Shown piece after piece: positions 1-64,000 of a stretch of 64,000 bases of DNA. The first letter of the stretch is position 1. Every line of letters begins with the position of its first letter. The position numbers and the translations under genes are program-made. The DNA lies in the sequence record MK327931.1, one strand, 5' to 3'. The notes beneath the pieces are model-generated. The model saw only the letters and a program-made list of their open reading frames with translations. It was not told where the DNA came from and did no database searches. This stretch comes from Escherichia phage vB_EcoM_G17.

Positions 1-269
1 AATTCCAGTAAATTTACACCAATCCAATCAACATCACTATCAGTACTTAATTCCAATCGTAGCTTACCGCTATGACTAACAATATCGCGGAATTTGTATA
101 TTTTATTATCACGAACTATACACAAATCATGGTAATATTCATGTAATTCATCCAAAAACTTTATCCATACCGAACGATAGATTTCACTGTAGAGATATTC
201 TCCAGCATCAACCGTAGCGTATTGGATATACAAAAATTTGTATGTGAATTGTATATCATTTAATAACAT
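1..269 (-). CDS. family C small paralog, 3' end cut by window edge; function unknown
   Basis: ATG at 269 after AGAGG; N-term MLLNDIQFTYKFLY parallels neighbours. Confidence 0.6.
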   Translation of the reverse strand, partial: MLLNDIQFTYKFLYIQYATVDAGEYLYSEIYRSVWIKFLDELHEYYHDLCIVRDNKIYKFRDIVSHSGKLRLELSTDSDVDWIGVNLLE

Positions 270-279
270 ATGTAACCTC

Positions 280-591
280 TTATAAATTCACCAACTTCAC
301 AACTTTAATCTCGATAAATCCCCTATCGGTTATTTCCTGAAATTGAACATGGATTATACCATTATATGATTGCACACCATAGAAATCGAATTTATCATTT
401 CCATCGATAAAAGTACTGTAATTCTTTTTTATATATTCACCTACTGAATCTAAGTACTCAATATATAAATCAATAAATGGTTGTTCTTTGGATCGGTTAT
501 GTGAACCTATGTTGTTACTAACAAGGTATACATCATACAAATCATATAGGATCTTATAAGTGAATTGTATATCATTTAAATTTAATCCCAA
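280..591 (-). CDS. family C small paralog; function unknown
   Basis: N-term LNDIQFTYKILYDLYD; tandem with 582..848 and 845..1120. Confidence 0.7.
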   Translation of the reverse strand: MGLNLNDIQFTYKILYDLYDVYLVSNNIGSHNRSKEQPFIDLYIEYLDSVGEYIKKNYSTFIDGNDKFDFYGVQSYNGIIHVQFQEITDRGFIEIKVVKLVNL

Positions 592-848
592 GGGAATATC
601 TCCAACGGAATACTGGTAAATCCAAAATCAGTGTAGTACTGAACCTCAACTTTACCATCACGTCTAATGATTATATCAGAAAATTCTGCATGGTCATCAC
701 CAATAATAACAGTACTGAATTTTTTTTTAATCTTACCACGAATCGTATGAATCATTTCAGTGCATGTGTCTTCTAGACTAGGGCTATCATTGTCGTGTGC
801 TAAATCTCGAATAATCTTGTATGTTAGTAGGAAATCTTTATAATTCAT
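582..848 (-). CDS. family C small paralog; function unknown
   Basis: N-term MNYKDFLLTYKIIRDL; overlaps neighbours by 4-10 nt. Confidence 0.7.
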   Translation of the reverse strand: MNYKDFLLTYKIIRDLAHDNDSPSLEDTCTEMIHTIRGKIKKKFSTVIIGDDHAEFSDIIIRRDGKVEVQYYTDFGFTSIPLEIFPWD

Positions 849-1120
849 ATGTCCACCAAATCTATACTATATCTTTCATTAGTATTACTATCTATAAATG
901 ATAGTACTAATTTACCACCAAAACTATTAACTTGTTCTATCTTCTGTTTTTTACCACGAATGATTATCTCACTATTAACAAAATATTCACGTATCATTAT
1001 TAAGTGATTAATCCAGATAGTATGAGTGAATGTGTTTTCTCGTATTGTATTGAGATATCTTCCATTGTGATGTAAATCAAACAAAACACTGTATGTATAT
1101 TGTAGAACTTTATAATTCAT
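845..1120 (-). CDS. family C small paralog; function unknown
   Basis: N-term MNYKVLQYTYSVLFDL; ATGA overlap with next gene. Confidence 0.7.
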   Translation of the reverse strand: MNYKVLQYTYSVLFDLHHNGRYLNTIRENTFTHTIWINHLIMIREYFVNSEIIIRGKKQKIEQVNSFGGKLVLSFIDSNTNERYSIDLVDI

Positions 1121-1132
1121 ATATCCCCTTAC

Positions 1133-1160
1133 AAAAATAGCCCGAACTTATGTCGGGCTA
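1133..1160 (-). terminator. rho-independent terminator
   Basis: TAGCCCGA-7nt-TCGGGCTA followed by T5 on minus strand, just after stop of 1167..1853. Confidence 0.75.
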
Positions 1161-1166
1161 TGTACA

Positions 1167-1853
1167 TTATTCATCGTCGTCATCGTCATCTAGATCGATA
1201 TAGATACTATCATCACCATCATCAAAGTACTCCACAATAACTCCTGGAATATTAAGGGCAGTAAACATTGCATCATATTTCTCATCAGATGGAATCAAAA
1301 CAAATTCGTCAATGTTTTGAACTTCTGGCATTTTATCTTCGGGGATACCCATATCAACAAGTGACTGAATAATCTTTTCTTTGAATTCTAAAAACTTCTC
1401 TTCAGATTCAAAATCCATAATAAGCTGTGCAACATATCCTTCATCGTTACCGAATGAAATTGACATTTGTGCATCAGTACCGACATAGCACCAAACACGT
1501 TTACCTGTGTGCTGCTCAATAAAGTTTTGAATCTGTAACACAATGTCATGGCGAGAACTGTTAGCAATGTTGTTAAGATTTTCTACACCAGCATTAATTC
1601 CAGTACTGTCATTTGTTTCTTCAAATTCACCATAATCACCCAATACATACTGTACACCTTCATGATGTAATGCATATGCATAGTCAAGGTCAGCGAGTGA
1701 ATCGCACTTTCCACGGATCGGACGTAGGGAAAGACCTAAGCGAAGATAACGGAAGTATGTATTAGTATTTGTATTTGTCAACGTAATGCTCCTTAACAAT
1801 ATAAAAGTAGTTGCTGTTATTGTCAAAAAAGATAACCATCCCTTTATAGACAT
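1167..1853 (-). CDS. acidic protein with poly-Asp C-terminus; function unknown
   Basis: ORF; C-term DDGDDSIYIDLDDDDDDE; likelier start is TTG at 1781 after AAGGAG, since the upstream part overlaps 1762..2061. Confidence 0.7.
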   Translation of the reverse strand: MSIKGWLSFLTITATTFILLRSITLTNTNTNTYFRYLRLGLSLRPIRGKCDSLADLDYAYALHHEGVQYVLGDYGEFEETNDSTGINAGVENLNNIANSSRHDIVLQIQNFIEQHTGKRVWCYVGTDAQMSISFGNDEGYVAQLIMDFESEEKFLEFKEKIIQSLVDMGIPEDKMPEVQNIDEFVLIPSDEKYDAMFTALNIPGVIVEYFDDGDDSIYIDLDDDDDDE

Positions 1854-2061
1854 TTACACCAATTTTGATTTCACATATGTTATTTGATTTACTCGCTTCA
1901 GTCAATAACATTTTGTGCTCTTTACTGAAAGTGTGGAACAGTGGTTTGACATGCCACATTTCGATACCATCCAGTACTGAAAATTTTTCACTAAATTTAA
2001 TCATTGATTCTTGTAAAAAATATCCTGTAAGATTTATTTCATCACACATGCAAGTTTCCAA
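1762..2061 (-). CDS. hypothetical protein
   Basis: ORF in minus-strand gene train. Confidence 0.6.
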   Translation of the reverse strand: METCMCDEINLTGYFLQESMIKFSEKFSVLDGIEMWHVKPLFHTFSKEHKMLLTEASKSNNICEIKIGVNVYKGMVIFFDNNSNYFYIVKEHYVDKYKY

Positions 2062-2335
2062 GAAAATTAATCACATCTGCATGTGATAATGTATCATTAC
2101 CTTCTAGTACATTAATGATAAACGGCACTTGACGATATAGTTCAGCCAGGAATTGTACCTCATCAGATGTGTAAGAATATCCCATAGGAACAACCTGTGC
2201 AGTCCAGTTTCCTAGAGTTTTGTTAGCAATAATTGCAACTACAGTATTACCTTTGTATTCAACATGGATGGAACGAAATCCTGATTGCTCATTTTGATCC
2301 CAAAGTACTGGATTGGTTTTGAACAGTACTGACAT
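2042..2335 (-). CDS. hypothetical protein
   Basis: ORF in minus-strand gene train. Confidence 0.65.
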   Translation of the reverse strand: MSVLFKTNPVLWDQNEQSGFRSIHVEYKGNTVVAIIANKTLGNWTAQVVPMGYSYTSDEVQFLAELYRQVPFIINVLEGNDTLSHADVINFLGNLHV

Positions 2336-2337
2336 AA

Positions 2338-2871
2338 TTATTTCCTCATGTATTTTATAACGTCTTCAAATAATTGTATTTTTAAGTCCTCGTCATTTCC
2401 AGGTAAAAACTCACGAAAACTATCAAAATCTTCATTTTTTGCGAAGTTACGCATTTGTGTTGAGCTATATTGACTTACATTACGGTCAATACCTGCCTGA
2501 ATTGCTTTTATACTACAAAAATTATACAACTTACCATTGTACATGTCAAGAGTTTTTTGAAAAGAATCAATACGGTCAGAACCACAAATGAAAAGAACAT
2601 CTAAGTACTTTCCATCCAGTTCTCTCATTATATCAAATAGATTGTCTTCTGTGTAGATGTTCTCTTGCACTGAAGGATAGAATCCCTCTGTATAATACAT
2701 TTTTAGTTCAGGTGGGAGTGGGTTTTTTATATTGTCAGTACTGGTGCTTAGATATATTTTTAAATCAGCATTGTACTGTTCTTGTAATGTTTTGGCCTTT
2801 TCAAAAACTAAACCATGTCCACGATGTACAGGATTAATACGACCAAACGTTAATACACATGTTTCTTTCAT
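2338..2871 (-). CDS. HxGH-type nucleotidyltransferase (NMNAT/PPAT/cytidylyltransferase-like fold)
   Basis: N-term FGRINPVHRGH (HxGH motif) and C-terminal SSTQMRN (SxTxxR motif); ~177 aa like archaeal-type NMNAT. Confidence 0.7.
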   Translation of the reverse strand: MKETCVLTFGRINPVHRGHGLVFEKAKTLQEQYNADLKIYLSTSTDNIKNPLPPELKMYYTEGFYPSVQENIYTEDNLFDIMRELDGKYLDVLFICGSDRIDSFQKTLDMYNGKLYNFCSIKAIQAGIDRNVSQYSSTQMRNFAKNEDFDSFREFLPGNDEDLKIQLFEDVIKYMRK

Positions 2872-3389
2872 AAATTCTTCATCACCAATCCGAGAGATTT
2901 AAGATAATTAATTTTAGCAGTGGTTAAGTACTTATCCAGTACTATCAGACACGAAGGAAATGGTGCTGAATCTGTTTTCTTATCGGGTTCTTCTGGTATA
3001 CCAAATCGTAATCTTCCCTTAATAAAACAAATACAATCACATATTTTAGCAGCATAATCCTGAAAAGCAATTGTGTCGGTTCTTGAGGGTACAAGAATAA
3101 CTACAGTTGCCCCGTTATTATATGCATCTACTGCTTTAGATAACCAAGTTTTCAAATCACTGTATGGTGGATTCAACCAAACTATATTATTTCCCCAATC
3201 CTGTGATAGTGAATCATCTTCTGGAGTGAAAAAATTATCACACAATGCAGTCTCATCAACACAAGCAGCATCAAGTGTAAATCCCCATAACTCATCCAAA
3301 TCTTCAAAGAAATCTTTGGGAGTTGTCCAGTTATCTTTTCCAGTACTGAAATGTACTGAATGTTTTTTCGAAGCATCCTTCTTCGACAT
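2868..3389 (-). CDS. dam: phage-type DNA N6-adenine methyltransferase (Dam family)
   Basis: DNWTTPKDFFEDLDELWGFTLDAAC ... VWLNPPYS catalytic NPPY; 4-nt overlap with downstream nucleotidyltransferase. Confidence 0.8.
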   Translation of the reverse strand: MSKKDASKKHSVHFSTGKDNWTTPKDFFEDLDELWGFTLDAACVDETALCDNFFTPEDDSLSQDWGNNIVWLNPPYSDLKTWLSKAVDAYNNGATVVILVPSRTDTIAFQDYAAKICDCICFIKGRLRFGIPEEPDKKTDSAPFPSCLIVLDKYLTTAKINYLKSLGLVMKNL

Positions 3390-27510: not shown

Positions 27511-27668
27511 AAAATCTCCTTCAGATTAGTACTGAATTTGTACAGAATATTAGAACTGTATACAGCCTCTGTATCTGTATCCATAATCAAATCACCTTTG
27601 TTTAAATTACAAAAGTACTGATAACTGTGCTTAAAAGAATGTACTGATATTAAAAAATCAAATTCCAT
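27507..27668 (-). pseudogene. truncated family A copy (N-terminal fragment, 53-codon ORF)
   Basis: first ~80 nt almost identical to the 5' end of 26783..27139 (MEFDFLISVH.FKHSYQYFCNLNKGDL), then diverges; lacks the FQ core; ATGA junctions on both sides. Confidence 0.6.
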
Positions 27669-28045
27669 CACACTTCCCCTAGATTGAAATGATTACAAAA
27701 ATCATCTTCACCAGTACTGCACCAGATATCTATACATTCCCTGTGAATACATTTAATTCTACGCTGTAATTCAATCATCTCTTCTAATGTACAGATGTAC
27801 TTCTTATCAAATACTAATGCCGCCTGAAACAGTGCAGCATCATCAAGTACTGTATAGTCCAACATCTCGGTTGCTTTACCCCTAAACCCAGTACTAAAAT
27901 CCATCAAATAAAAGTCAGCATTCCAGTACTTTAAAATCTTGTCCCTAGCGTAGTTTAAATCACCCTTGTATAAGTTAGAGTGCGTAACTAACTCACCAGT
28001 GTACATCCATGTCCTTGCACAAAATTCATTATATTTTATTTCCAT
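27668..28045 (-). CDS. family A paralog (short form)
   Basis: trimmed to MEIKYNEF; core DYTVLDDAALFQAALVFDKKY. Confidence 0.7.
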   Translation of the reverse strand: MEIKYNEFCARTWMYTGELVTHSNLYKGDLNYARDKILKYWNADFYLMDFSTGFRGKATEMLDYTVLDDAALFQAALVFDKKYICTLEEMIELQRRIKCIHRECIDIWCSTGEDDFCNHFNLGEV

Positions 28046-28243
28046 CTTAATCTCTACTATAATTAATAAGGTAAACTCCAATATAAGGAGAACGTTCGGC
28101 GGCGGGGTATTTTTTGTTTCAAGAAACATGAACTGTACTCTGAAAAACACAATATAAAACTTTATATTAAACATATACCTTAGCATGTTTTTCAGCGGAA
28201 ATTTTTTTGACCCCCCCCTGCGGCCTGTCAAAATGAAACGTCT

Positions 28244-28468
28244 CTATTTATTCAGCCTAGAAACCTTGATTTCTTCAATCCTTTTCATTGCACAAAGCCT
28301 TCGACTCGTCCTCTCGTATATATTCAATACTCGCTGTAATGCATTATCTGTATTATCTGCAACTGCAATCTGAACCAAATATGTATCCTTCAAAATAGAA
28401 TCCATCATGAATTCAAAACCTTTCACACTAAAGCAATATGCCACTTCCGGCTCTTCAAACGTAATCAT
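28244..28468 (-). CDS. hypothetical small protein
   Basis: 74-aa ORF. Confidence 0.55.
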   Translation of the reverse strand: MITFEEPEVAYCFSVKGFEFMMDSILKDTYLVQIAVADNTDNALQRVLNIYERTSRRLCAMKRIEEIKVSRLNK

Positions 28469-28685
28469 AATTCCAATCCCCTATTCCCTCTAACCTTCTA
28501 AGATATCTTGCGTAAATTATTTCGAAATATCTGTGCAACGAAATTACGGATTGCTCATAATCATCATTCCTGTACATTGTGCATGTCAGAAAATCATTTA
28601 ACCCAAAATCTAAACTGCACTTGAACTTCTCCTTTGCAATATCACTATTACTTGCACTTTTCATAATAAACCCTTTGTACCGCAT
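28455..28685 (-). CDS. hypothetical small protein
   Basis: ORF; the start may be the internal MKSASNS at 28664. Confidence 0.55.
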   Translation of the reverse strand: MRYKGFIMKSASNSDIAKEKFKCSLDFGLNDFLTCTMYRNDDYEQSVISLHRYFEIIYARYLRRLEGIGDWNYDYV

Positions 28686-28824
28686 TGGTGTACTGTGAAC
28701 TCAGCACCACTAATAGGTAATCTATATTGTAAGCACGATTTCCTCGTTGACTAGCACGGCTGGAATAAAGAATATTATCCACATATGTATTGAACTGATC
28801 TTCAAATAACTCTTTCATCAGCAT
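28648..28824 (-). CDS. possible small protein (58 aa)
   Basis: below track cutoff; fills a gap; no clear SD. Confidence 0.3.
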   Translation of the reverse strand: MLMKELFEDQFNTYVDNILYSSRASQRGNRAYNIDYLLVVLSSQYTNAVQRVYYEKCK

Positions 28825-28846
28825 TATACCATCACATAATCATACA

Positions 28847-29398: not shown

Positions 29399-29408
29399 TG
29401 TACTTTCC

Positions 29409-38192: not shown

Positions 38193-38400
38193 AATCTCTT
38201 TTTGCTTTCCTCGCCAAAAGGTACATATACGATTCTTCGTATTGTGCTTGGTAGTTTGTGTTTAAGAGTCGAAACAACTTCTGTTCTGCTAGAACTAGTT
38301 GCTTATCTTCATAACAACGGTAGCGTATCAACTTTTTGTATTCGATGTTGATTACATCCATTACTATAAGCCCATGTTCATCATCTGTCAAGTGTTTCAT
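38170..38400 (-). CDS. family B small paralog
   Basis: core LLNTNYQAQYEESYMYLL. Confidence 0.7.
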   Translation of the reverse strand: MKHLTDDEHGLIVMDVINIEYKKLIRYRCYEDKQLVLAEQKLFRLLNTNYQAQYEESYMYLLARKAKRDYENFKQR

Positions 38401-38639
38401 GCATTTTTTCTTTTTCTTATATGTTTAGTTAAAAGGTATATTAGTTTTCTGATGTATTCTTCTTGATAGTTTGTTCCTAAGAGTGCAAGAAGTTTTGCTT
38501 CAACTAAAGCTAGTTGTCGTTCTTCGAATGTGTGTTCCAGTATGTACTTGGGGTTTGATTTTTTAGCGTAAGCACTATTAGTCTTCATTACAATCTTATG
38601 ATATTCATTAGCTGTTAGGATTTTTAAATACTTGATCAT
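38397..38639 (-). CDS. family B small paralog
   Basis: core LLGTNYQEEYIRKLIYLL. Confidence 0.75.
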   Translation of the reverse strand: MIKYLKILTANEYHKIVMKTNSAYAKKSNPKYILEHTFEERQLALVEAKLLALLGTNYQEEYIRKLIYLLTKHIRKRKNA

Positions 38640-38859
38640 GTATCTTTTCCTTTATAGAGAATTTAAGATATCGAAGCATACTTTCAATGTAATACTCTTG
38701 TCTGTCAGTGCCAAGAAAGTACATGAGTTGAATGTATAAAACTTCTGCACTCCTTTCCGCTGGAGACTTGTTTGTGTCGTTTGGAAGTTGATTTGTATGT
38801 TTTCTTGATTTAATTAGTCGTTCTTTTAACTCATCGTCTGTTAAGTATTTCATTTTCAT
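38608..38859 (-). CDS. family B small paralog
   Basis: core FLGTDRQEYYIESMLRYL. Confidence 0.75.
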   Translation of the reverse strand: MKMKYLTDDELKERLIKSRKHTNQLPNDTNKSPAERSAEVLYIQLMYFLGTDRQEYYIESMLRYLKFSIKEKIHDQVFKNPNS

Positions 38860-39085
38860 TTACTTTTTCCTTAATAGTGATTTTAAGATATCTAATCATA
38901 CGTGCAACATATTCCTCTTGTCTATCAGTTCCCAGAAGATATGGTAGTGATTGGAATAATACTTCTGCACTCCTTTCTGCTGGGGTTTGGTTTAGGTCAA
39001 TTGGACGTTTATTGGTATATCTCTTGGCACGAACTAATCTCTCGACGTATTCATTATAGGTTAAGTATATCATTTCATTTTGCAT
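38831..39085 (-). CDS. family B small paralog
   Basis: core LLGTDRQEEYVARMIRYL. Confidence 0.75.
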   Translation of the reverse strand: MQNEMIYLTYNEYVERLVRAKRYTNKRPIDLNQTPAERSAEVLFQSLPYLLGTDRQEEYVARMIRYLKITIKEKVNENEILNRR

Positions 39086-39305
39086 TTACTTTTTCCTTAA
39101 TACTCATTATAAGATGTTCAATCATATTTTGAACCATAAATTCTTGTTTATCAGTTCCAAGAACGTATGGTAGCTTCTGAAACAATACATTTGCAGATAC
39201 TTCAGATATTGATTGATTTGGAACGAACTTAAGAGTAATGTTTTTGGTTTTTAACATCTTCTCTTGAAATTCTTCATTCGTTAAGTATATCATTTCATTT
39301 TGCAT
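39075..39305 (-). CDS. family B small paralog
   Basis: core VLGTDKQEFMVQNMIEHL; N-term MQNEMIYLT shared with 38831..39085. Confidence 0.75.
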   Translation of the reverse strand: MQNEMIYLTNEEFQEKMLKTKNITLKFVPNQSISEVSANVLFQKLPYVLGTDKQEFMVQNMIEHLIMSIKEKVNAK

Positions 39306-39521
39306 TTACATTCTCTCATATATATTTTGGGTTAAAAGGTCAATCCAGATTTCCACATATCGTTGTTGGTGTTGCGTCCCTAACAGTACACCCAACTTAG
39401 CTTCACACTCTAATAACAATCTGGTTTTGTATGGTAGACTTTGGAATCCTATAGTAGCATCTAATTTGGTAATTGCATAGTTGATTCGGATGAATCTTTC
39501 TTGCAATGTGATGTTGTTCAT
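39306..39521 (-). CDS. family B small paralog
   Basis: core LLGTQHQQRYVEIWIDLL. Confidence 0.75.
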   Translation of the reverse strand: MNNITLQERFIRINYAITKLDATIGFQSLPYKTRLLLECEAKLGVLLGTQHQQRYVEIWIDLLTQNIYERM

Positions 39522-39808
39522 TTCTTAGTACACCTCAGTGGTTGGGTCATTTGATAAAAGTACAGCTTACCTTTGATTTCCAGTAGTAACTCCGCGATTA
39601 AGCGATTTACTTCTGTATCTTGATAGTTTGTTCCTAAGAATACACCCATCTTTAACTCACGCATCATAATCATTTTCTTACTGTGTTGAATTTCTGGGTT
39701 GTGATAGATTGTATTACGTTTGTGCGTAATTTTTGTCATACGCTCGGTATATTCATCTTTACTTAAATTGATCATTTGCATGTTCATCAACCTCACATTT
39801 ATTTTCAA
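39518..39808 (-). CDS. family B small paralog
   Basis: core FLGTNYQDTEVNRLIAEL. Confidence 0.75.
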   Translation of the reverse strand: MKINVRLMNMQMINLSKDEYTERMTKITHKRNTIYHNPEIQHSKKMIMMRELKMGVFLGTNYQDTEVNRLIAELLLEIKGKLYFYQMTQPLRCTKK

Positions 39809-39810
39809 TA

Positions 39811-40077
39811 CTATTCTTTAGTTTGTAGATATAGTTTTCTTCCAATGTATCTCTTAAGTGCGATTATGTATTCATCTACATAATACTCCTGATAGTTTGT
39901 TCCTATGAATGCACCCACCTTTAACTCAAGTTTCATAATCATCTTATTTCCGTGTTTAATGACTTCTCCGTGATGGATTTCATTAAGTCCAGGTGCAATT
40001 TTCACCAGGCGTTCTTTATATTTTGCTTGAGATAATTTAATCATTTTCATGTTAATTACCCTTACATTTATTTTCAA
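39811..40077 (-). CDS. family B small paralog
   Basis: core FIGTNYQEYYVDEYIIAL. Confidence 0.75.
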   Translation of the reverse strand: MKINVRVINMKMIKLSQAKYKERLVKIAPGLNEIHHGEVIKHGNKMIMKLELKVGAFIGTNYQEYYVDEYIIALKRYIGRKLYLQTKE

Positions 40078-40282
40078 TACTATTCATGAGTTCTATAAGA
40101 TAGTTTTCTACCTTACCTTCCTGATAGTTAGTCCCTAGGAAGTTGCACAACACGGCTTCTATGATTTTGATTTTCCTGATATCAGGCTTCAATCTTTTGT
40201 TATTGAATATTTGAATCCTTATATCTCTGGATGCATTTAAACGTTTTTGATATTCATGGTAAGTTAAATGAATCATTTTCAT
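40052..40282 (-). CDS. family B small paralog
   Basis: core FLGTNYQEGKVENYLIEL. Confidence 0.75.
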   Translation of the reverse strand: MKMIHLTYHEYQKRLNASRDIRIQIFNNKRLKPDIRKIKIIEAVLCNFLGTNYQEGKVENYLIELMNSIENKCKGN

Positions 40283-40497
40283 TTACGTTTAACCTCTCGC
40301 TGGAGGGCATCAATTAACATCAGTACAGCATTCTCTTGATAGTTTGTTCCTAAGACTGAAAGCATCTTTATCTCATTTACTAAAATCAACTTCTTTGAGG
40401 GTTCAATAATGTGACTATCATAAACGGCCTTACGTGCTGGATAAGTTTTCGCCAGTATAACATAAAATTCGTCTTTACTTAAATTAATCATTTGCAT
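40279..40497 (-). CDS. family B small paralog
   Basis: core VLGTNYQENAVLMLIDAL. Confidence 0.75.
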   Translation of the reverse strand: MQMINLSKDEFYVILAKTYPARKAVYDSHIIEPSKKLILVNEIKMLSVLGTNYQENAVLMLIDALQREVKRK

Positions 40498-40706
40498 TTA
40501 CTTTTAACCTCTTTCTGTAGAGCGTCAATCCATAGATCTACATACATTTGTTGATAGTTTGTGCCTAAGAGTGCACCTACATAGAGTTCAGTTACTAGTG
40601 CGTGCTTAAGGTTAGCTTGGATGCTCTTATCGCTTGATATCATTCTCCTTCTGCTTCCACATGTTTTCAGGAGTCTGATGTATTCAAAGCCTTGTAAATT
40701 TCTCAT
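40488..40706 (-). CDS. family B small paralog
   Basis: core LLGTNYQQMYVDLWIDAL. Confidence 0.75.
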   Translation of the reverse strand: MRNLQGFEYIRLLKTCGSRRRMISSDKSIQANLKHALVTELYVGALLGTNYQQMYVDLWIDALQKEVKSKCK

Positions 40707-40918
40707 ATTTTGGATACCACCTTGTTACGTAAGGAACTTAATAATACGTCAGTGTAGATGTTTTGATAGTTTGTCCCTACGAATACACCCAACTTCATTT
40801 CAGCTATTATAACACATTTGTCCTCTTGTGCAATAGATTTGTTTAACACAATACTATACACTTTTGATTTGATAGTTTGTAACCTCCAATGATACTGATA
40901 CTCATTAAGGATTATCAT
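40703..40918 (-). CDS. family B small paralog
   Basis: core FVGTNYQNIYTDVLLSSL. Confidence 0.75.
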   Translation of the reverse strand: MIILNEYQYHWRLQTIKSKVYSIVLNKSIAQEDKCVIIAEMKLGVFVGTNYQNIYTDVLLSSLRNKVVSKI

Positions 40919-41165
40919 TCTCTTTCCTCCAGATTTCGGTTCTCATGTGTTGGCAGTGTGCATCAATATATTGCTCTATCGATCTGGCGATTGCTGTTTT
41001 ATCAGTGCCTGTCATCAGTACAAGCATCTCGGCCTCACAGTGAAGTAAACGCATGATATCATAGGGTAATATTTCAGATACCGTGTCATAGTGTTTCTGT
41101 GCCAGTGTCTGCAATAGTTTACAATACATTTTGTGATTTAGTCTTTGTCGCATTGTTTCTTCCAT
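40905..41165 (-). CDS. family B small paralog (divergent core)
   Basis: core-equivalent LMTGTDKTAIARSIEQYIDA. Confidence 0.6.
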   Translation of the reverse strand: MEETMRQRLNHKMYCKLLQTLAQKHYDTVSEILPYDIMRLLHCEAEMLVLMTGTDKTAIARSIEQYIDAHCQHMRTEIWRKENDNP

Positions 41166-41410
41166 TCTCTTCTGGCTTGGCGGGTTTTATCTGATATTTC
41201 GTTTCTCAATGCAGAGATATATCGTAGAGTGAACAGTTCTTGATAGTTAGTCCCTATGAATTTATTAAGATATACATCAGCGTTGACGATATCAGCTTCA
41301 CGGGAATTATAAAGTTTATTGTTAGTGCGAAGGGTGTTTAGAAGAGAGAAGAGGGCAGTCTGATACTCAGTGCTTGATAAAGTTTTCATATTTTTCCACA
41401 ATTCGTTCAT
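41138..41410 (-). CDS. family B small paralog
   Basis: core FIGTNYQELFTLRYISAL. Confidence 0.75.
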   Translation of the reverse strand: MNELWKNMKTLSSTEYQTALFSLLNTLRTNNKLYNSREADIVNADVYLNKFIGTNYQELFTLRYISALRNEISDKTRQARREWKKQCDKD

Positions 41411-41624
41411 TTAGTTTTATCTGTATAAGATCCATTAGTTGTTCAAGATAATCGGTACAATATTTCTCTTGATATTGGGTTCCCACAAAGTACAGCAACC
41501 ATAGCTCATGAACTTTAACTTTCATCTCGTTCCATGAAAGTGCATCGTCATCGTAGATTACTCTTGCTTCTGGGGTGAGCTTTCGAATTCTAAGTGAATA
41601 TTCATCGTCCGTCAAGTGTTTCAT
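41367..41624 (-). CDS. family B small paralog
   Basis: core FVGTQYQEKYCTDYLEQL. Confidence 0.75.
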   Translation of the reverse strand: MKHLTDDEYSLRIRKLTPEARVIYDDDALSWNEMKVKVHELWLLYFVGTQYQEKYCTDYLEQLMDLIQIKLNERIVEKYENFIKH

Positions 41625-41779
41625 TTACATTTATCCCTTATTAGATTTGTGAGTGCAACTATGTGTTCATGGATATAAAAATTTTGATGAGAAGTTCCAA
41701 GAAAGTACAGCATCCATCCCTCACTCTGCTCGACTTCTAGTTTAGTATCGAGTTGGTCAGATATGTTAATGAAAACCAT
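41621..41779 (-). CDS. family B small paralog (52 aa, N-terminally short)
   Basis: below track cutoff; core FLGTSHQNFYIHEHIVAL; TAATG and ATGA junctions. Confidence 0.6.
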   Translation of the reverse strand: MVFINISDQLDTKLEVEQSEGWMLYFLGTSHQNFYIHEHIVALTNLIRDKCK

Positions 41780-42036
41780 TAGTTCTTTTCCTTTCTTTCT
41801 ATTTGTTTCATAAGAACATCGATATACTCACCCGCAAACCTATTCTGATACTGCGTCCCCATGAATTCCAACATCCATACTTCAGCAACCTTTTCTTCAA
41901 TTTCAGTCCATTGTAAGTACATCATAGTGAAGTAAATGGTGTTCTCTTTTTTTCTGGCACTCTTAGCACGGGCCTCGTATTCAAAGTTATTAATGATGTT
42001 CATTACATTTGTCCATAATGTAATTCTTGAGTGCAA
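41779..42036 (-). CDS. family B small paralog
   Basis: core FMGTQYQNRFAGEYIDVL. Confidence 0.75.
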   Translation of the reverse strand: MHSRITLWTNVMNIINNFEYEARAKSARKKENTIYFTMMYLQWTEIEEKVAEVWMLEFMGTQYQNRFAGEYIDVLMKQIERKEKN

Positions 42037-42217
42037 CTATGTGTGCAATAACATACTCTTCCTGGAAGTTCGTCCCCAGTACAGCCAACATGCGTACATC
42101 GGTGGTGTTTATCTTGTGTTCCAATCGAGTTAAACCTTTTATTTGTAAAAGGGTATCGTATTTGTTTAATGCATCAATGATAATTCTCATCTTCTCAATA
42201 TTACTTAAATGTTTCAT
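41990..42217 (-). CDS. family B small paralog
   Basis: core VLGTNFQEEYVIAHIVAL. Confidence 0.75.
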   Translation of the reverse strand: MKHLSNIEKMRIIIDALNKYDTLLQIKGLTRLEHKINTTDVRMLAVLGTNFQEEYVIAHIVALKNYIMDKCNEHH

Positions 42218-42426
42218 AGTTTACTCTTAATGTAGTTCTGAAGTTCAATTAAGTATTTCCCTACATAATACTCCTGAAAGTCTGTATCCAAAAATGCACC
42301 CAAAAGTAAATCCTTCTCCATTGCCCTTGATAAGTTAAGGTCTGCATTTGAAAGGTATATAAGTAATATTTCAGTCTGGACAGAATTAAAACGTTTCTTA
42401 TATTCTTCAGGTGTTAATATAATCAT
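42214..42426 (-). CDS. family B small paralog
   Basis: core FLDTDFQEYYVGKYLIEL. Confidence 0.75.
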   Translation of the reverse strand: MIILTPEEYKKRFNSVQTEILLIYLSNADLNLSRAMEKDLLLGAFLDTDFQEYYVGKYLIELQNYIKSKL

Positions 42427-42638
42427 AATTTGCTCCTGATGTATTTCTCAAGAGATGACAAATACTTTTCCTCATAATACTCCTGATAGTCTGTTCCCAA
42501 GAATGCACCCATAAGTATTTCATTTTCCAATACCTCGGCTAAGTTTAAATCAGACGTCTCTTCGTATATTATGAGGATTTCAAGTTGTCTGGCAGCGATG
42601 CGTTCAGTATATTGATATGAGTTTTCTATAATAATCAT
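42423..42638 (-). CDS. family B small paralog
   Basis: core FLGTDYQEYYEEKYLSSL. Confidence 0.75.
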   Translation of the reverse strand: MIIIENSYQYTERIAARQLEILIIYEETSDLNLAEVLENEILMGAFLGTDYQEYYEEKYLSSLEKYIRSKL

Positions 42639-42844
42639 ATTTTACTCTTAATATCTTCTATTAAAAATCGAATCCATTCTTCAACATAATCTTCCTGATG
42701 GTTTGTGTTCAGTACAGCCAACATGCGGATCTCTGCTCTTGCAACTTCAATTTCAGTTTTAGGCAGGTCTTTGCTGATATCCACCATTAAGTCCATGTAT
42801 TTCAAGATAAGACCGTATGATTGGGTTCGTGTTATAGTTTTCAT
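42635..42844 (-). CDS. family B small paralog
   Basis: core VLNTNHQEDYVEEWIRFL. Confidence 0.75.
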   Translation of the reverse strand: MKTITRTQSYGLILKYMDLMVDISKDLPKTEIEVARAEIRMLAVLNTNHQEDYVEEWIRFLIEDIKSKI

Positions 42845-43041
42845 TGTTTCCTCGTGGACAATATTTTATTTTTCAATGTATCCATATATTGCCACACCCA
42901 TCTACCCTGATAGTTTGTTCCCAATGTAATCAAAAGGTATAACTCCATTCGTTCTACGTGTGTGTCTGTGTTGTAAATCTTTACGTAGTTTTTACGTAAC
43001 AGTGATTGATATTCTTCTTTATTTAAAATACGCATTTTCAT
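42841..43041 (-). CDS. family B small paralog
   Basis: core TLGTNYQGRWVWQYMDTL. Confidence 0.75.
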   Translation of the reverse strand: MKMRILNKEEYQSLLRKNYVKIYNTDTHVERMELYLLITLGTNYQGRWVWQYMDTLKNKILSTRKQ

Positions 43042-43235
43042 AGTTTACTCGTTATATCTTCAATTAAATACCAAATCCAATCGTTGACATACCTTTCCTG
43101 AAAGTTAGTTCCAATGAATAGTGCCATAATTAATTCACGCTTATAGGCAATACCACGGTCATGGGACTTATACATTATCATAGCCATGTTATTGATAAGT
43201 CTTTCGTGGTGCTGTTCTTTAGTTAAAATACGCAT
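43038..43235 (-). CDS. family B small paralog (first gene of the array)
   Basis: trimmed to MRILTKEQ after AAGGGAG; core FIGTNFQERYVNDWIWYL. Confidence 0.75.
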   Translation of the reverse strand: MRILTKEQHHERLINNMAMIMYKSHDRGIAYKRELIMALFIGTNFQERYVNDWIWYLIEDITSKL

Positions 43236-43265
43236 AGGGACTCCCTTAAAATTAATATCAATCAT

Positions 43266-43293
43266 ATTTTATACGATTCATATAAAAAGTCAA
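43266..43293 (-). promoter_or_regulatory. sigma70-like promoter at the head of the family B array
   Basis: -35 TTGACT (43288-93), 16-nt spacer, -10 TAAAAT (43266-71). Confidence 0.5.
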
Positions 43294-43390
43294 TAACATT
43301 TTATTCGTAATACCCCTTTATCGAAGTCGCTAAGGTTACCCGCCCTTTAGCCCCCTACGCATTTTGCCATAGTCCAATCCCTTTTATTTC

Positions 43391-43456
43391 AAAAAAGTCA
43401 AGGGATTACCTATGCATTTTTTTAACGCATAATTTTAAAAACGCCTTGACTTTTTT
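43391..43456 (-). terminator. large inverted repeat, terminator-like module boundary
   Basis: 13-bp arms AAAAAAGTCAAGG / CCTTGACTTTTTT with a ~40-nt loop; U-run after the stem on both strands. Confidence 0.5.
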
Positions 43457-43484
43457 CTGAATCAGTACTAGATCCCTTTACGCA

Positions 43485-46559: not shown

Positions 46560-46581
46560 AATTTTGTTTCCTTTTAGTATC

Positions 46582-46640
46582 GGGGAGAACTATTCTCCCC
46601 TTGATGTAAACTATTATACAGTACTGATATACTTTGTCAA
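46582..46640 (-). promoter_or_regulatory. promoter + 5' leader hairpin cassette
   Basis: -35 TTGACA 46635-40, 16-nt spacer, TGnTATAAT -10 at 46613-18; perfect hairpin GGGGAGAA-cta-TTCTCCCC 46582-600. Confidence 0.8.
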
Positions 46641-57050: not shown

Positions 57051-57533
57051 TTATGCTTCAACTTTGCGATGAGCTTCGATCCATTCCTCGCGAGTCATAC
57101 CGCTTTCTTTGATAGCGTCCAGTACTACCGCAATGCAGTTACCGCGTACAGGAATCAAATGTTCTTCCCCGTTATCAAGTACTACCGCTACACGTTCCTG
57201 AATCCATTTTTTAGGCTTAGATTCCGGCTTATCTTCACCATACTTAACCGCCAGGGCTTTATGTGCCATTTCCACAACCACTTCCAGATCCAATCCAGAC
57301 ACTGCCGCCTGAATACTTTCAATTGTTGCTTGTAGTTCTGCTTCACGGGCTTTTTTCTGTTCTTCCAGTTCTGCTACCTTTTTGGCTTGCAGTTCTTTCG
57401 CAGTACTGTACGCAATGTTAAAATTGTTGCGTACCGCTTTCATGGTATCGCTATCCAGTTCAGCCAGGATTTCTGCCGCTACGTTAGTTTCATTTGCTAC
57501 CAGTGCTTTGATGAATGATTTTACATTAGCCAT
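57051..57533 (-). CDS. hypothetical protein with a central coiled-coil-like segment
   Basis: trimmed to MANVKSF; KELQAKKVAELEEQKKAREAELQATIESIQ. Confidence 0.75.
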   Translation of the reverse strand: MANVKSFIKALVANETNVAAEILAELDSDTMKAVRNNFNIAYSTAKELQAKKVAELEEQKKAREAELQATIESIQAAVSGLDLEVVVEMAHKALAVKYGEDKPESKPKKWIQERVAVVLDNGEEHLIPVRGNCIAVVLDAIKESGMTREEWIEAHRKVEA

Positions 57534-58886: not shown

Positions 58887-58945
58887 GGGAGAACCATTTC
58901 TCCCCTCTATGTAAACTATTATACAGTACTGAAAACTAATTGCAA
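58887..58945 (-). promoter_or_regulatory. promoter + 5' leader hairpin cassette
   Basis: -35 TTGCAA 58940-45, 16-nt spacer, -10 TATAAT 58918-23; hairpin 58887-904. Confidence 0.75.
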
Positions 58946-58953
58946 GTACTTTT

Positions 58954-59157
58954 TTAATTTAATTGCTTTAAAACATACTCAAAGACACCACGCACATCAT
59001 TGATCATCGCCTGGCGGTTAGCAGGTAACGCATCAGGATCGCCACTATCCCAGGCATTGATAAAACTCCCCAAATCATGATAGATTTTATTCTGTAAGCC
59101 GATTAACTGTAATTCTTTTTCTTCAAGCTCTTTGATGCGGTCGATTAAATCACTCAT
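58954..59157 (-). CDS. hypothetical small protein
   Basis: trimmed to MSDLIDRIKE after GAGGA. Confidence 0.65.
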   Translation of the reverse strand: MSDLIDRIKELEEKELQLIGLQNKIYHDLGSFINAWDSGDPDALPANRQAMINDVRGVFEYVLKQLN

Positions 59158-61260: not shown

Positions 61261-61267
61261 GTACTTT

Positions 61268-61859: not shown

Positions 61860-61879
61860 TTTTTTAATCCTCTTATATA

Positions 61880-61938
61880 GTGGGGAACTATTCCCCACCT
61901 GATGTAAAACATTATACGCTTTTAAACATAGTTTGCAA
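61880..61938 (-). promoter_or_regulatory. promoter + 5' leader hairpin cassette
   Basis: -35 TTGCAA 61933-38, 16-nt spacer, -10 TATAAT 61911-16; hairpin GTGGGGAA-cta-TTCCCCAC 61880-97. Confidence 0.75.
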
Positions 61939-61952
61939 GTACTTTATTAAAC

Positions 61953-62315
61953 TTATTCGTAAATTTTGCCACTGTCAGCCCATACCAGGAAACGAGGCAT
62001 ATTATCCCATGCATCTTGTTTTAAATTTAAACCGTGTAATACTTCTGTACTTTCCATTCCTGGTACTGGTTTACTATACACCGCGAAATTTTCGCCCATA
62101 TACTGATAAACCATCGTCAAATCACTGGCGATCATCTTATGGATCATCGCATCAAGCATCACGGTAGCGGCGTATTGTTCACGCTTAAGCGGCAACATTG
62201 TAATAAGTTCCCGATAAGCTGAAATGTGAATTTTTACCGTTTCAGCCGGAAGACCTTTCATCTCTTCACGGAAGTTGACCAGGTTAGAAATAATTTTATT
62301 GATTTGGGTCGCCAT
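61953..62315 (-). CDS. hypothetical protein
   Basis: trimmed to MATQINKII. Confidence 0.7.
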   Translation of the reverse strand: MATQINKIISNLVNFREEMKGLPAETVKIHISAYRELITMLPLKREQYAATVMLDAMIHKMIASDLTMVYQYMGENFAVYSKPVPGMESTEVLHGLNLKQDAWDNMPRFLVWADSGKIYE

Positions 62316-62339
62316 CGTATTAATCTCTTTTAAAGTGTA

Positions 62340-62398
62340 GCGGGAAGTGTTCCCGCTCTCGATGTAAAACATTATACGCCTTTAAACATAGTTTGCAA
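62340..62398 (-). promoter_or_regulatory. promoter + 5' leader hairpin cassette (rightmost protein-coding unit)
   Basis: -35 TTGCAA 62393-98, 16-nt spacer, -10 TATAAT 62371-76; hairpin GCGGGAA-gtg-TTCCCGC 62340-56. Confidence 0.75.
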
Positions 62399-62634
62399 GT
62401 ACTTTCTACATGTACTTTTAAAATAGTTTTCTTTCTATATAGGGGAACTATCATTCAGTACTATTATTCAGTACTGAATCAACCAAATCACTACTACACC
62501 CCATAAAACGGCCTCAGACGCATTCTAACGCATTAATACACCTAAGCTATACATTTGCACCATTCCAATCATTCCAGGGCTTTACGGGCCGTTTAAACGC
62601 GTTAAATTATTTTCAATTATTTTGTTTTTAGCTA

Positions 62635-62720
62635 TTGACTCAGTACAGAAAAAGCGTATAATTACTACATAGACGCGAGAAAGCGGAAACCCCAGAGGGT
62701 GCGGAATTACGCCCAAAATT
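62635..62720 (+). promoter_or_regulatory. plus-strand promoter followed by a box
   Basis: -35 TTGACT 62635-40, 16-nt spacer, -10 TATAAT 62657-62; hairpin CGC-gagaaa-GCG; box ACCCCAGAGGGTGCGGAATTACGCCCAAAATTC. Confidence 0.55.
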
Positions 62721-62736
62721 CAAGATATAAAAAAAG

Positions 62737-62816
62737 GATACACTCCCGCACCCTAGCAGGTAAACGCACTTTCTCAGTACTGAAATATAGTACCATAGTC
62801 CGGCCCAGGATAGCAA
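62737..62816 (-). promoter_or_regulatory. minus-strand promoter followed by a box, convergent with 62635-62720
   Basis: -35 TTGCTA 62811-16, 18-nt spacer, -10 TACTAT 62787-92; box CCTGCTAGGGTGCGGGAGTGTATCC 62737-60. Confidence 0.5.
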
Positions 62817-62850
62817 GCAAATTAATTAAAACTTTTTTGCTTCCAGGGTA

Positions 62851-62936
62851 TTGCTTTATTTTTTCAGTACTGTATAATAGTTCCATCAAGTCGAGAAAGA
62901 CTCAAGCCCACCGGGTGCATAGTTACGCCCAAAATT
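62851..62936 (+). promoter_or_regulatory. plus-strand promoter followed by a box
   Basis: -35 TTGCTT 62851-56, 16-nt spacer, TGnTATAAT 62873-78; hairpin GTC-gagaaa-GAC; box AGCCCACCGGGTGCATAGTTACGCCCAAAATTC 62905-36. Confidence 0.55.
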
Positions 62937-62974
62937 CAGTACTGAAAAAATTTTTAAAAATATCCGTCCAGGCC

Positions 62975-63003
62975 GTTGACATTGCCCCCAGTTTATAAGA
63001 TAA
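62975..63003 (+). promoter_or_regulatory. plus-strand sigma70-like promoter
   Basis: -35 TTGACA, 17-nt spacer, -10 GATAAT; followed by GGGGAAACTATCCCC hairpin near 63041-55. Confidence 0.45.
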
Positions 63004-63101
63004 TGATTCCAGATTCAGAAAAATCTAACTCCAGATACTGCGGGGAAACTATCCCCACGCGGTAGGGGAACTATTGGAAAAAACAAAATAAAATTTTGAT
63101 T

Positions 63102-63215
63102 TAGCCGTCTATACTTCCAGACGTGTAACCATCTAGCCGTTTAGCCGTCCAAACGTCTAGCCATCCAGAAATCTAGCCGTCTAGATGGATAGCCATCTTT
63201 ACTTCCAGACTTCTG
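63102..63215. repeat. iteron-like short direct repeats plus small palindromes
   Basis: (C)TAGCC(G/A)T(C/T) at ~63102, 63133, 63142, 63157, 63173, 63190; ACTTCCAGAC twice; palindromes AGATGG-atag-CCATCT and CCAGA-ct-TCTGG. Confidence 0.6.
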
Positions 63216-63395
63216 GAGGGCTAGACATATCTACGCCCAAAATCCATCCAGGGTAACTACACCCAAAATCCGTCAGTACTATACCATAGATCTATCTTTT
63301 GAAAGGGAGTATTCAGTACTGCCATCATAGCCCTCACTATGTTACCCTAGGAGGATGAAGACCATCATGTAGTACTGAATACTGTTAGAGGGAAT

Positions 63396-63415
63396 CCACC
63401 AGCACAAGCTGGTGG
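63396..63415. other. palindromic Chi pair (one Chi on each strand)
   Basis: CCACCAGC-acaa-GCTGGTGG, exact. Confidence 0.85.
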
Positions 63416-63607
63416 TATAATGCTTTAGATTAAAATCAGTACTGACACCATTCTGTTAATATCAGTACTGTTATTACGATTTTCATATGAGGTTCAAAAA
63501 GATGTACCACCACAGGAGGAACTATCTTTTCTGTACTGTCTCACGACAGGAGGTAGAGTAAATGAATTGTTCGCAGCAACTCATCACCCCTTGAAGCTAT
63601 GTAGAAC

Positions 63608-63635
63608 ATTATACAGTACTGAATCATAATGTCAA
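63608..63635 (-). promoter_or_regulatory. sigma70 consensus promoter with no ORF downstream
   Basis: -35 TTGACA 63630-35, 16-nt spacer, TGnTATAAT 63608-13; leftward transcript has no ORF above ~20 aa. Confidence 0.6.
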
Positions 63636-64000
63636 TAGCTTTCTTTCATTATTCAGTACTGATATTCTTGAGAACTACCCGACTACAAACATCATTATAT
63701 CCCACAAATCATAAACGTCCCAACGTAAATTTCAACTTTCGAAGATCCAACTTTTATTTCATAGGTACTCCAAAATTTTTAGGATCGAGATTTAGGATGG
63801 AGTACTAACCAACTTTTTGCTGGAGCCTCAAGGGGTAATTGAATTTTACCCCGAAGGGTAAAAGGGTAATTGTAATTAAGGTGAAAGTAATAATTCAGTA
63901 CTAATCATTGCGTGATTACTTTTGATTACATTTGATGTAATTTGCAAAATGGAAAAGGAGCTTGGAAACTACAAAGTACGGCAGACTTCCTCTGCCTACT

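Follow-up and report, generated by a model that had tools for sequence, protein, structure and literature searches.

AGTACT, an iterated palindrome of a RaK2-like jumbo phage, and its possible recognition by a DNA-binding factor

Phages are known for the avoidance of palindromes. The described case that comes closest to an iterated one is HIP1 (GCGATCGC) of cyanobacteria, which occurs about once per kb or more, in all reading frames and in non-coding DNA, is lineage-specific and exceeds neutral expectation. Its CGATCG core is methylated (PMC6105098, PMC6604393) and its function is still unsettled. Here, we analyze the hexamer AGTACT in a 64,000-nucleotide stretch of Escherichia phage vB_EcoM_G17 (record MK327931.1), hereafter the window. 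Genome-wide counts were made on the record of Escherichia phage Sharanji (OR545507.1; 350,079 bp, 34% G+C), with which the window is 100% identical and which is placed in Asteriusvirus, in the 121Q/PBECO4 group of RaK2-like jumbo phages. AGTACT, the ScaI site, resembles HIP1 in three respects: it is in genome-wide excess (7.6×), the excess is independent of reading frame and extends to non-coding DNA, and its sites are conserved above background. An iterated palindrome is a phenomenon of known kind, and the lytic jumbo phage is a new setting for it. The differences from HIP1 are the phage instead of a cellular genome, the AT-rich word, fixed positions in early promoters, clusters at the terminus, two exempt blocks and a strand-specific variant; in addition, homology assigns no cognate methyltransferase to the phage word. 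For HIP1, nothing has been described that corresponds to the placement at promoters and termini, the exempt blocks, the oriented variant or the use of another word by a sister lineage. The motif is described neither in the Sharanji paper (PMC11895373) nor in the CBB paper, nor in full-text literature searches on the motif in phages or with methyltransferases, and a literature search for its extended form CAGTACTG returned primer sequences only.

Phage proteins that coat DNA offer a second comparison. The histone-like proteins p6 of phi29 and TF1 of SPO1 nucleate at genome ends or at those early promoters that lie in the terminal redundancy, and they act as repressors of early transcription; they recognize bendability or hydroxymethyluracil (hmU)-DNA rather than a sharp 6–8 bp palindrome. 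Like these phages, the one studied here has a terminal repeat of strong host-type early promoters and its highest site density at termini and promoters, and the action that we propose below, early shut-off together with genome-wide binding, would be similar. No homologue of p6 or HU was found in Pfam scans of 429 small open reading frames (ORFs). H-NS and MvaT oligomerize, nucleate at preferred short sites, spread and silence promoters, as the proposed reader would, but they have a loose AT-rich preference and no defined palindrome.

Among words rather than proteins, the SlmA-binding sequence (SBS) of E. coli, GTGAGTACTCAC, likewise has AGTACT at its centre and is dyad-symmetric (PMC3020112). 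SlmA needs the 12-bp GTRAGYRCTYAC, in which G1, T2, A4 and G5 are critical and only a purine is accepted at position 3 (PMC3020112). None of the 903 sites of the phage genome is a full SBS, half-flanks number 20 against 45 expected, and position 3 prefers a pyrimidine, with G in 5–8%; the phage word looks as if it were selected not to be an SBS. A LexA box (CTGT-N8-ACAG), suggested by TACTGTATAAT, is at chance level, with 2 copies against 3.4 expected genome-wide. Chi, KOPS and DNA-uptake sequences share with AGTACT a genome-wide excess by selection or drive, in which density counts for more than exact position, and the variant block described below is strictly oriented. Those words, however, are asymmetric everywhere, whereas AGTACT is palindromic in its standard form and shows strand bias in one block only.

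Extent of the excess and selection on the site

The object of the analysis is the following feature:

1–64,000 (no strand): AGTACT field of 251 copies by exact count, with the consensus Y-AGTACT-R and CAGTACTG as its most frequent form; the whole genome has about 903 copies, these included

Base composition predicts 21.4 copies for the window and a first-order Markov model 17.0; 100 dinucleotide-preserving shuffles gave 17.0 ± 3.9, with a maximum of 26. The over-representation that a first, sequence-only reading had reported by eye is real, with an enrichment of 12–15×, and taken as a whole the case for it is stronger than noted there. Its spot counts of 15 (first 3 kb), 5 (24.0–25.0 kb) and 5 (62.4–62.95 kb) were all exact, but the density of about 5 per kb that it gave was too high, the mean for the window being 3.9/kb. 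AGTACT is by far the most enriched palindrome of the window, and GTACTG, CAGTAC and AGTACT are its top three enriched hexamers. Over the whole 350-kb genome, 903 copies stand against 118 expected (7.6×, 2.6/kb), and every 5-kb bin has some, two stretches near the terminal repeat excepted.

Enrichment grows stepwise from the centre of the word, from 2.2× for GTAC to 3.7× for AGTAC/GTACT, 7.6× for AGTACT and 20× for CAGTACT, and it reaches 58× for CAGTACTG and 127× for TCAGTACTGA genome-wide. Among the 8-mer forms, CAGTACTG is the commonest (199 of the 903 sites). Flank preference is symmetric, with C at −1 in 46% and G in 5–8%, alike at coding and non-coding sites; ATTCAGTACTGAAT is an example of a duplex that contains the word. 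Single-mismatch neighbours keep an enrichment of 1.0–2.0×. An order-4 Markov model gives an observed/expected ratio (O/E) of only 1.2 for AGTACT, which does not contradict the excess, because the sub-words AGTAC, GTACT and GTAC are enriched by the same signal. The histogram of gaps between sites is near-Poisson, with a sole excess at 20–21 bp that comes from promoter pairs; this spacing rules out cooperative arrays within genes.

A compositional or repeat artefact would trace the excess to codon usage, to paralogous gene families, to promoter cassettes or to a side effect of avoiding restriction sites. Such families and repeated cassettes do abound in the window, and the preferred codons AGT, ACT, GTA and TAC lift the baseline. 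When synonymous codons were shuffled within each gene, which preserves protein sequence and codon usage (the latter itself inflated by the motif), 219 ± 12 coding sites were obtained genome-wide, against 756 observed. All three codon phases are enriched 3–4× (378/145/234 observed, 122/36/61 expected). About 147 of the 903 sites are intergenic, at a non-coding density of 5.0/kb, as are 45 of the 132 in the terminal repeat, and the single-copy capsid-gene neighbourhood alone has 38 AGTACT against 7.1 expected. The sequence-only reading had staked its claim on the excess surviving a codon-aware background and not being due to the repeated promoter cassettes; on both counts the excess stands. The peptide FQYST, in which it had seen the site encoded, explains very few sites, which fall in all three phases and at non-homologous positions. 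Nor could the removal of some 700 avoided palindromes funnel into one word. With non-homologous positions, a 5–6× enrichment in the capsid region and a constraint on sites relative to their flanks also contradicting it, we give the artefact practically no credence.

The genes accommodate the word in their codons and, to a degree, in their proteins. TAC makes up 27% of Tyr codons overall and 78% of those flanked by AG...T; for GTA among Val codons, the share rises from 36% to 76% between A...CT; and 378 of 719 Ser-Thr pairs are written AGT-ACT, where 111 are expected. The dipeptides ST, VL and QY are over-represented 1.35–1.48×, and the excess is directional, the reversed TS, LV and YQ standing at 0.97–1.07× (ST 1.48 vs. 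TS 1.01; VL 1.35 vs. LV 0.97). Selection acts on the DNA and not on the protein, at a measurable protein-coding cost.

Divergence was measured by comparing site bases with the 24 flanking bases lying 6–18 bp on either side. Against PBECO4 (2.6% divergence), the per-base difference is 0.008 in sites and 0.024 in flanks; against Ecwhy_1 (10% divergence), it is 0.026 and 0.057, and hexamer retention is 0.894 for sites vs. 0.757 (Fisher p = 2.7e-5). Sites diverge 2–3× more slowly than their adjacent flanks in both comparisons. At about 73% nucleotide identity, in the capsid region of other genera, 19–45% of sites are co-located, as compared with about 20% for any hexamer, and the number of sites per genome is similar despite this positional turnover. 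Constraint in the short term and turnover in the long term indicate that what is maintained is density.

Neutral molecular drive, by a sequence-biased mismatch repair similar to very short patch (VSP) repair or by biased gene conversion that creates or restores AGTACT, would also raise the word in all codon phases and mimic slower divergence of the sites, and a changed repair enzyme would give clade-specific words. The neighbours of the word are not depleted, however: the transition neighbours AGTATT/AATACT stand at 1.10× and AGCACT/AGTGCT at 1.69×, and the only low neighbour, AGGACT/AGTCCT at 0.46×, is a transversion neighbour. Drive would not spare two conserved blocks, put a strand-specific variant in one of them or fix positions in promoters, as described below, and no Vsr-like gene was noticed in Pfam surveys of the small ORFs. 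We consider such a drive very improbable.

Early promoters and the terminal repeat

In the close relative vB_Ec-M-J, the left physical end is annotated, and it aligns to record position 36,445, which is window position 64,000 (window 1–27,632 corresponds to record 322,448–350,079, and the remaining window to record 78–36,445). The published length of the direct terminal repeat is 20,668 bp (PMC11895373). By this alignment, the right edge of the window is the physical genome end, and the “ORF-free right end” of the sequence-only reading is therefore the terminal non-coding DNA of the genome. The start of the record is arbitrary and lies within the unique region, not at a physical end; the first 77 bp of the GenBank record equal its last 77 bp, an assembly overlap that falls at window 27,556–27,632. 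The features concerned are:

43,333–64,000 (minus strand): complete direct terminal repeat, from the vB_Ec-M-J end alignment and the length of 20,668 bp (PMC11895373)
46,600–46,650 (minus strand): sigma70-type early promoter, TTGACA-AAGTATATC-AGTACT-G-TATAAT, followed by a leader hairpin (record 19065)
58,915–58,960 (minus strand): two-site promoter, AAAA-AGTAC-TTGCAA-N9-AGTACT-G-TATAAT (record 31370 and 31390)
62,300–64,000 (minus strand): terminal non-coding DNA with 15 sites, often (A)TTCAGTACTGA(A)T, at the physical genome end

Genes of the terminal repeat lie on the minus strand, are small and belong to the early or host-takeover type. Both G+C and site density jump at about 43.4 kb, which matches the boundary of the repeat. 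Its 132 sites are spread at 11.4/kb over intergenic and 4.2/kb over coding DNA. A simple regular expression found 33 sigma70-type promoters in the repeat, most with the consensus TTGACA and TATAAT, and 30 of the 33 have AGTACT between −43 and −7. The site lies in the spacer and abuts the −10 element in 19 promoters (TTGACA-N9-AGTACT-G-TATAAT); 11 promoters have it over the first base of the −35 element (AGTAC-TTGCAA), and here a further site frequently lies about 23 bp upstream; and in 5, the −35 element runs into the site (TTGAC-AGTACT). In the two-site promoter at 58,915–58,960, the −35 hexamer is bracketed by sites with a spacing of 20 bp. Pairs at 20 bp match the sole excess of the genome-wide gap histogram, at 20–21 bp.

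Exactly the same spacer architecture is also present in Klebsiella phage RaK2, with 8 instances, and in 121Q, with 11. The RaK2 form, AGTAC-TTGACA-N9-AGTACT-G-TATAAT, again has two sites 20 bp apart that bracket the −35 element; the other spacer bases and the leader hairpin differ, and the positions of the sites are conserved. As is expected of an operator, a dyad-symmetric site thus overlaps core promoter elements (19 abutting the −10, 11 overlapping the −35), and in RaK2 its position is kept while neighbouring bases vary. The physical end is similarly occupied in Klebsiella phage Muenster: in its record, which begins at the genome end, the first 1.3 kb are packed with sites, the first of them about 48 bp from the end. 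All three contexts that the sequence-only reading had distinguished, namely genes, fixed promoter positions and clusters at the right end, are real, and the second is conserved in another genus.

For most genes of the terminal repeat, a conserved transcribed leader hairpin, GGGGAGAAnnnnTTCTCCCC, begins a few bases downstream of the predicted transcription start (e.g., at about 46,570–46,600). RaK2 has an analogous leader hairpin of different sequence, GGGGATACATAGTGTATCCCC.

We hypothesize that Y-AGTACT-R is the recognition site of a dimeric, clade-specific phage DNA-binding factor, for which it would be both an operator at early promoters and a genome-wide nucleation point or self mark. This is the reading that we favour, tentatively and at less than even odds. 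Dyad symmetry, graded enrichment, enrichment of near-cognate words, promoter positions shared across genera and terminal clusters are together best explained by such a factor, and the 1.0–2.0× enrichment of single-mismatch neighbours is as expected for a gradient of binding energy. Consensus promoters need no activator, and overlaps with the spacer and the −35 element are where repressors act, from which we infer repression. A dimer or oligomer at the promoter sites would exclude RNA polymerase and switch early transcription off; the coding sites, roughly 750 scattered copies, would be nucleation or marking points, from which the factor would coat or identify phage DNA genome-wide. An oligomerizing, genome-coating action would account for the density selected everywhere. 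As a candidate reader, we propose the terminal-repeat protein gp090, homologues of which have a putative H-NS-like N-terminal coiled coil.

Related phages, avoided palindromes and AGTACT-free blocks

Related phages, where the sequence-only reading had suggested looking for the motif, were compared through capsid-gene neighbourhoods from IMG/VR. AGTACT is the top palindrome (O/E 3.2–6.5) in every relative with a capsid protein at least 85% identical, and enrichment in the capsid region is 5–6× in Sharanji and five other genera. The O/E is weak (2.4) at 72% capsid identity and at chance level in environmental relatives at 64–69%. On these sequences, the motif is confined to the enterobacterial RaK2-like clade. 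One distant relative, L030 (IMGVR_UViG_3300044959_000303, 1–21218; capsid 65% identical), has no AGTACT excess; in its sequence TTCGAA occurs 68 times against 7.1 expected (9.6×), TCGA is enriched 4.3× and TTTCGAAA 26×, in all codon phases. By its distribution, this is the same phenomenon, written in another word.

The positive selection of AGTACT, called remarkable in the sequence-only reading, is more so given what the same genome lacks. About 22 six-base palindromes, each expected some 32 times, have zero copies, including GGATCC, CTGCAG, GAGCTC, GGTACC and CGTACG; GGTACC and CGTACG are G/C-flanked versions of the GTAC core. GCGC is likewise absent, against 292 expected genome-wide, and GATC, CTAG, TCGA, CCGG and GGCC stand at 0.4–0.6×. 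A palindrome is kept at about 2.6 per kb at a protein-coding cost while others are extremely avoided. In one 50-kb sample of host DNA (E. coli K-12 MG1655, 1,000,001–1,050,000), AGTACT occurs 3 times against 11.6 expected and GTAC is at 0.71×; relative to this one small sample, the density of AGTACT per kb is about 40× higher in the phage.

These data bear on the possibility that a phage DNA modification enzyme, such as an orphan methyltransferase, acts on AGTACT or on the GTAC core within it, so that modified sites would mark or protect phage DNA as a counterpart of HIP1. The word is a short palindrome of the type read by Type II methyltransferases, and viral orphan methyltransferases for AGTACT exist, e.g., in mollivirus (PMC7253447), a precedent in favour of modification. 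L030 iterates another restriction-type palindrome, built on TCGA, and switching of specificity is typical of methyltransferases. Near-random dispersal, all codon phases and turnover also fit a modification target, as they do for HIP1. The phage encodes a small C5-cytosine methyltransferase, gp251, and the following candidate:

2,868–3,389 (minus strand): gp542, Dam-family (PF05869) N6-adenine DNA methyltransferase by Pfam, candidate enzyme for modification

The specificity of gp542 and gp251 cannot be inferred by homology; the nearest homologues of gp542 outside the clade are 46% identical and the characterized VT2 Dam 32%, too distant to assign a target. Moreover, methyltransferase targets are normally neutral or avoided rather than enriched, and modification does not predict enrichment beyond the hexamer or the placement in promoter spacers and −35 elements across genera. 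The extreme avoidance of other palindromes suggests DNA that is largely unprotected. C5 methylation combined with VSP-type repair is unsupported, since AGTATT/AATACT are not depleted at their 1.10×. We regard a modification target as unlikely, though worth keeping in view.

The spread over the whole window had been overstated in the sequence-only reading: AGTACT does occur in coding and non-coding DNA, but there is none in 27,931–35,646 or in 38,092–43,463. Its description of the field stood as to enrichment and missed these void blocks, the AGTACA variant in one of them, the restriction to a clade and the context of the terminal repeat. The region is organized as follows:

27,931–35,646 (minus strand): variant block gp002–gp019, 7.7 kb, no AGTACT by word counts
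35,647–38,091 (minus strand): island between the voids, gp020–gp029, 2.4 kb, 17 normal AGTACT sites
38,092–43,332 (minus strand): second AGTACT-free stretch by word counts, gp030–gp051, immediately inside of the terminal repeat

The same succession of void, island and void is found in PBECO4 and Ecwhy_1. The variant block has 41 TGTACT on the plus strand, that is, AGTACA on the sense strand, against 2.7 expected (15×), and zero AGTACA and zero AGTAC on the plus strand; AGTAC occurs 43 times on the sense strand and 0 times on the other, and 59 of the 68 GTAC are TGTAC on the plus strand. The sense AGTACA sites are at non-homologous positions and in codon phases 16/16/14, and their contexts change amino acids (xAG-TAC-Axx; GTA-CAx, giving V-Q or V-H). 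Phases, positions and contexts rule out both a peptide motif and a minimally mutated palindrome. The intact half of the variant word keeps the preference for C at −1 (19 of 41). A whole-genome scan found no other region that behaves like this block, and outside of it non-palindromic half-words show no strand bias (386 vs. 414).

In Ecwhy_1, the homologous block (79% nucleotide identity; the gp008 orthologue is 56% identical in protein) has 0 AGTACT, 43 TGTACT, 0 plus-strand AGTAC and 48 GTACT. Of 38 aligned sites, 18 are shared, and 17 are lineage-specific. That the state of the block is kept despite this turnover indicates a property that is actively maintained. Muenster has no comparable variant block. 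The gp008 family is limited to Asteriusvirus, and the block is untraceable by homology in other genera.

The variant block bears on a further reading, a strand-acting enzyme. The oriented half-element (C)AGTAC would be read on one strand by a primase, a site-specific nickase or a type II topoisomerase, and the palindrome would be two overlapping halves that serve both strands. A primase would have an unusually long site (template GTA giving a T4-like pppAC primer), and a topoisomerase would cut with a 4-bp GTAC stagger. This is the only idea that addresses the block, with its 43 vs. 0 AGTAC, its C preference at −1 and its maintenance with turnover in two lineages. Selection on density and not position, near-Poisson spacing and genome-wide spread would accord with an enzyme for which sites must recur every few hundred bases, and the phage encodes its own replisome, helicase, topoisomerase II subunits and recombination genes, which fit such an enzyme. 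T4 primase uses GTT/GCT and T7 primase GTC; the recognition sites of known primases span three to five bases, no enrichment has been reported for them, and a specificity as long as the one required here has no known precedent. Fixed promoter positions or a density of 11/kb in the terminal repeat are not predicted by a strand-acting enzyme. It also leaves unexplained why the second orientation is excluded from the block and not merely unneeded, and the half-words outside of the block lack strand bias. We hold a strand-acting enzyme to be rather improbable as the reader.

The second void lends this idea no independent support. GTAC is not enriched there, and about 22 tandem paralogues of about 70 amino acids (gp030–gp051, 38,397–43,265) share a ...LGTNYQE... 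motif; CTGTACT recurs just upstream of that motif, at a homologous position in two reading frames (L-Y-F or A-V-L). The opposite polarity of the second void was discounted as independent evidence since it rests largely on this one homologous paralogue position, and a divergent polarity around an origin in the 35.6–38.1 kb island was set aside for the same reason.

Upstream of the variant block, the intergenic region at 35,391–35,552 (minus strand) carries TATAAAT, which agrees with the T4-type late promoter TATAAATA at 7 of 8 positions, and it lacks any sigma70-type promoter that includes AGTACT. Judging from these promoter sequences, the variant block may belong to a different temporal class.

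The candidate reader and other features of the terminal repeat

The proposal of gp090 as the reader of AGTACT comes from the terminal repeat of Muenster, which encodes a “putative DNA-binding protein”, gp011, with an N-terminus that matches the H-NS oligomerization domain PF22470 (E = 1.3e-5, above the cut-off).

57,051–57,533 (minus strand): gp090, 160 amino acids, H-NS/MvaT-like layout, candidate reader by homology to Muenster gp011

The two proteins share 35% identity (E = 1e-13). Few proteins belong to the gp090 family, and all come from RaK2-like phages: a deep profile search found 15 relatives and no canonical H-NS, and the relatives in IMG/VR come from 121Q and RaK2 only. For gp090, long helices compatible with a coiled coil and a beta-beta-alpha-alpha C-terminal domain are predicted, and the only invariant residues of the family are G131-N132, in the loop after a predicted beta-hairpin. 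The “AT-pincer” of MvaT (an Arg with Gly99-Asn100) reads TpA steps in the minor groove and tolerates G·C pairs (PMC4466236). In the predicted structure, the G-N position of gp090 may correspond to the Gly99-Asn100 half of this pincer, which we offer as a lead and not as a result. It could equally be that gp090 acts against the host H-NS instead.

Several points weigh against a dimeric DNA-binding factor, or against gp090 as that factor. Some 750 near-Poisson, turnover-prone coding copies exceed what ordinary operators need, and the promoter cassettes are partly paralogous, which makes their fixed positions less than fully independent observations. A symmetric dimer does not account for the strand-asymmetric block of 43 vs. 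0 AGTAC kept in two lineages, and, more generally, the AGTACT-free blocks and the oriented AGTACA variant are left unexplained. To our knowledge, minor-groove silencers do not read a 6–8 bp word so sharply. No helix-turn-helix (HTH), HU or ribbon-helix-helix (RHH) domain was found in the 429 small ORFs (Pfam, three batches), nor a DNA-binding candidate among the neighbours of the phage sigma factor. PF22470 matches 3 of 16 members of the gp090 family, and the Sharanji gp090 itself is below threshold. Its C-terminal part gave no match to the Pfam H-NS C-terminal domain, to PDB profiles or in Foldseek, and its AlphaFold model has a pLDDT of 64 overall and 40–55 around the C-terminal G-N region. 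The link to H-NS/MvaT is weak and nothing ties gp090 to AGTACT specifically; its role as the reader is plausible from homology and layout.

A switch of specificity between lineages, as with TTCGAA in L030, counts for a DNA-binding factor as well. Of the roles that the sequence-only reading had listed without a choice among them, namely a DNA-binding protein, a modification target and a recombination or nicking signal, promoter architecture and dyad symmetry favour the first, and the strand-specific variant block keeps strand-acting enzymes in play. The explanations considered here are not mutually exclusive, and the remaining probability belongs to something else. Going further, we may conjecture that RaK2-like phages write a lineage-specific “self code” of about 900 palindromes, AGTACT or a TCGA-based word, that would be read by an H-NS/MvaT-like protein of the terminal repeat; a phage-specific chromatin would then shut early promoters and separate phage from host DNA, and blocks with oriented half-sites would be kept out of it. 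This wider picture is speculative, and we think it improbable as a whole.

If AGTACT is read by a phage protein, it provides a handle on how early genes are switched off, how 350 kb of DNA are organized and how self is told from host in jumbo phages without a nucleus-like shell. Should the word instead signal modification or priming, genome-wide positive selection for a site of this type would be seen in a phage for the first time, and it could inform the study of HIP1. The natural AGTACA block and the TTCGAA relative are built-in controls, with E. coli K-12 and Klebsiella as hosts.

Among the small ORFs of the window and its surroundings, up to record 40.7 kb, there are a DksA/TraR-type zinc finger (E = 1e-11) and a ParE-like toxin domain (E = 5e-11), together with a weak protein-kinase match and several domains of unknown function (DUFs). 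Terminal repeats of relatives carry an annotated acetyltransferase and kinase. Beyond the right end of the window on the circular map, record 36,700–40,720 is packed with ORFs of about 60 amino acids on the minus strand, mostly unannotated; the record shows this region as nearly gene-free, and its AGTACT density is about 7/kb.

A second word in excess is true Chi, GCTGGTGG, which occurs 29 times in the genome, where about 1.4 copies are expected. Nine copies in the terminal repeat, mostly intergenic, have the same orientation, and one near the genome end is on the plus strand:

44,695; 44,918; 46,495; 48,394; 50,743; 52,011; 52,724; 56,926; 63,396 (minus strand): Chi copies, match to GCTGGTGG
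63,408 (plus strand): Chi copy, match to GCTGGTGG

The enrichment of Chi may protect the linear ends from RecBCD. Near the genome end, Chi forms a hairpin, CCACCAGC-ttgt-GCTGGTGG.

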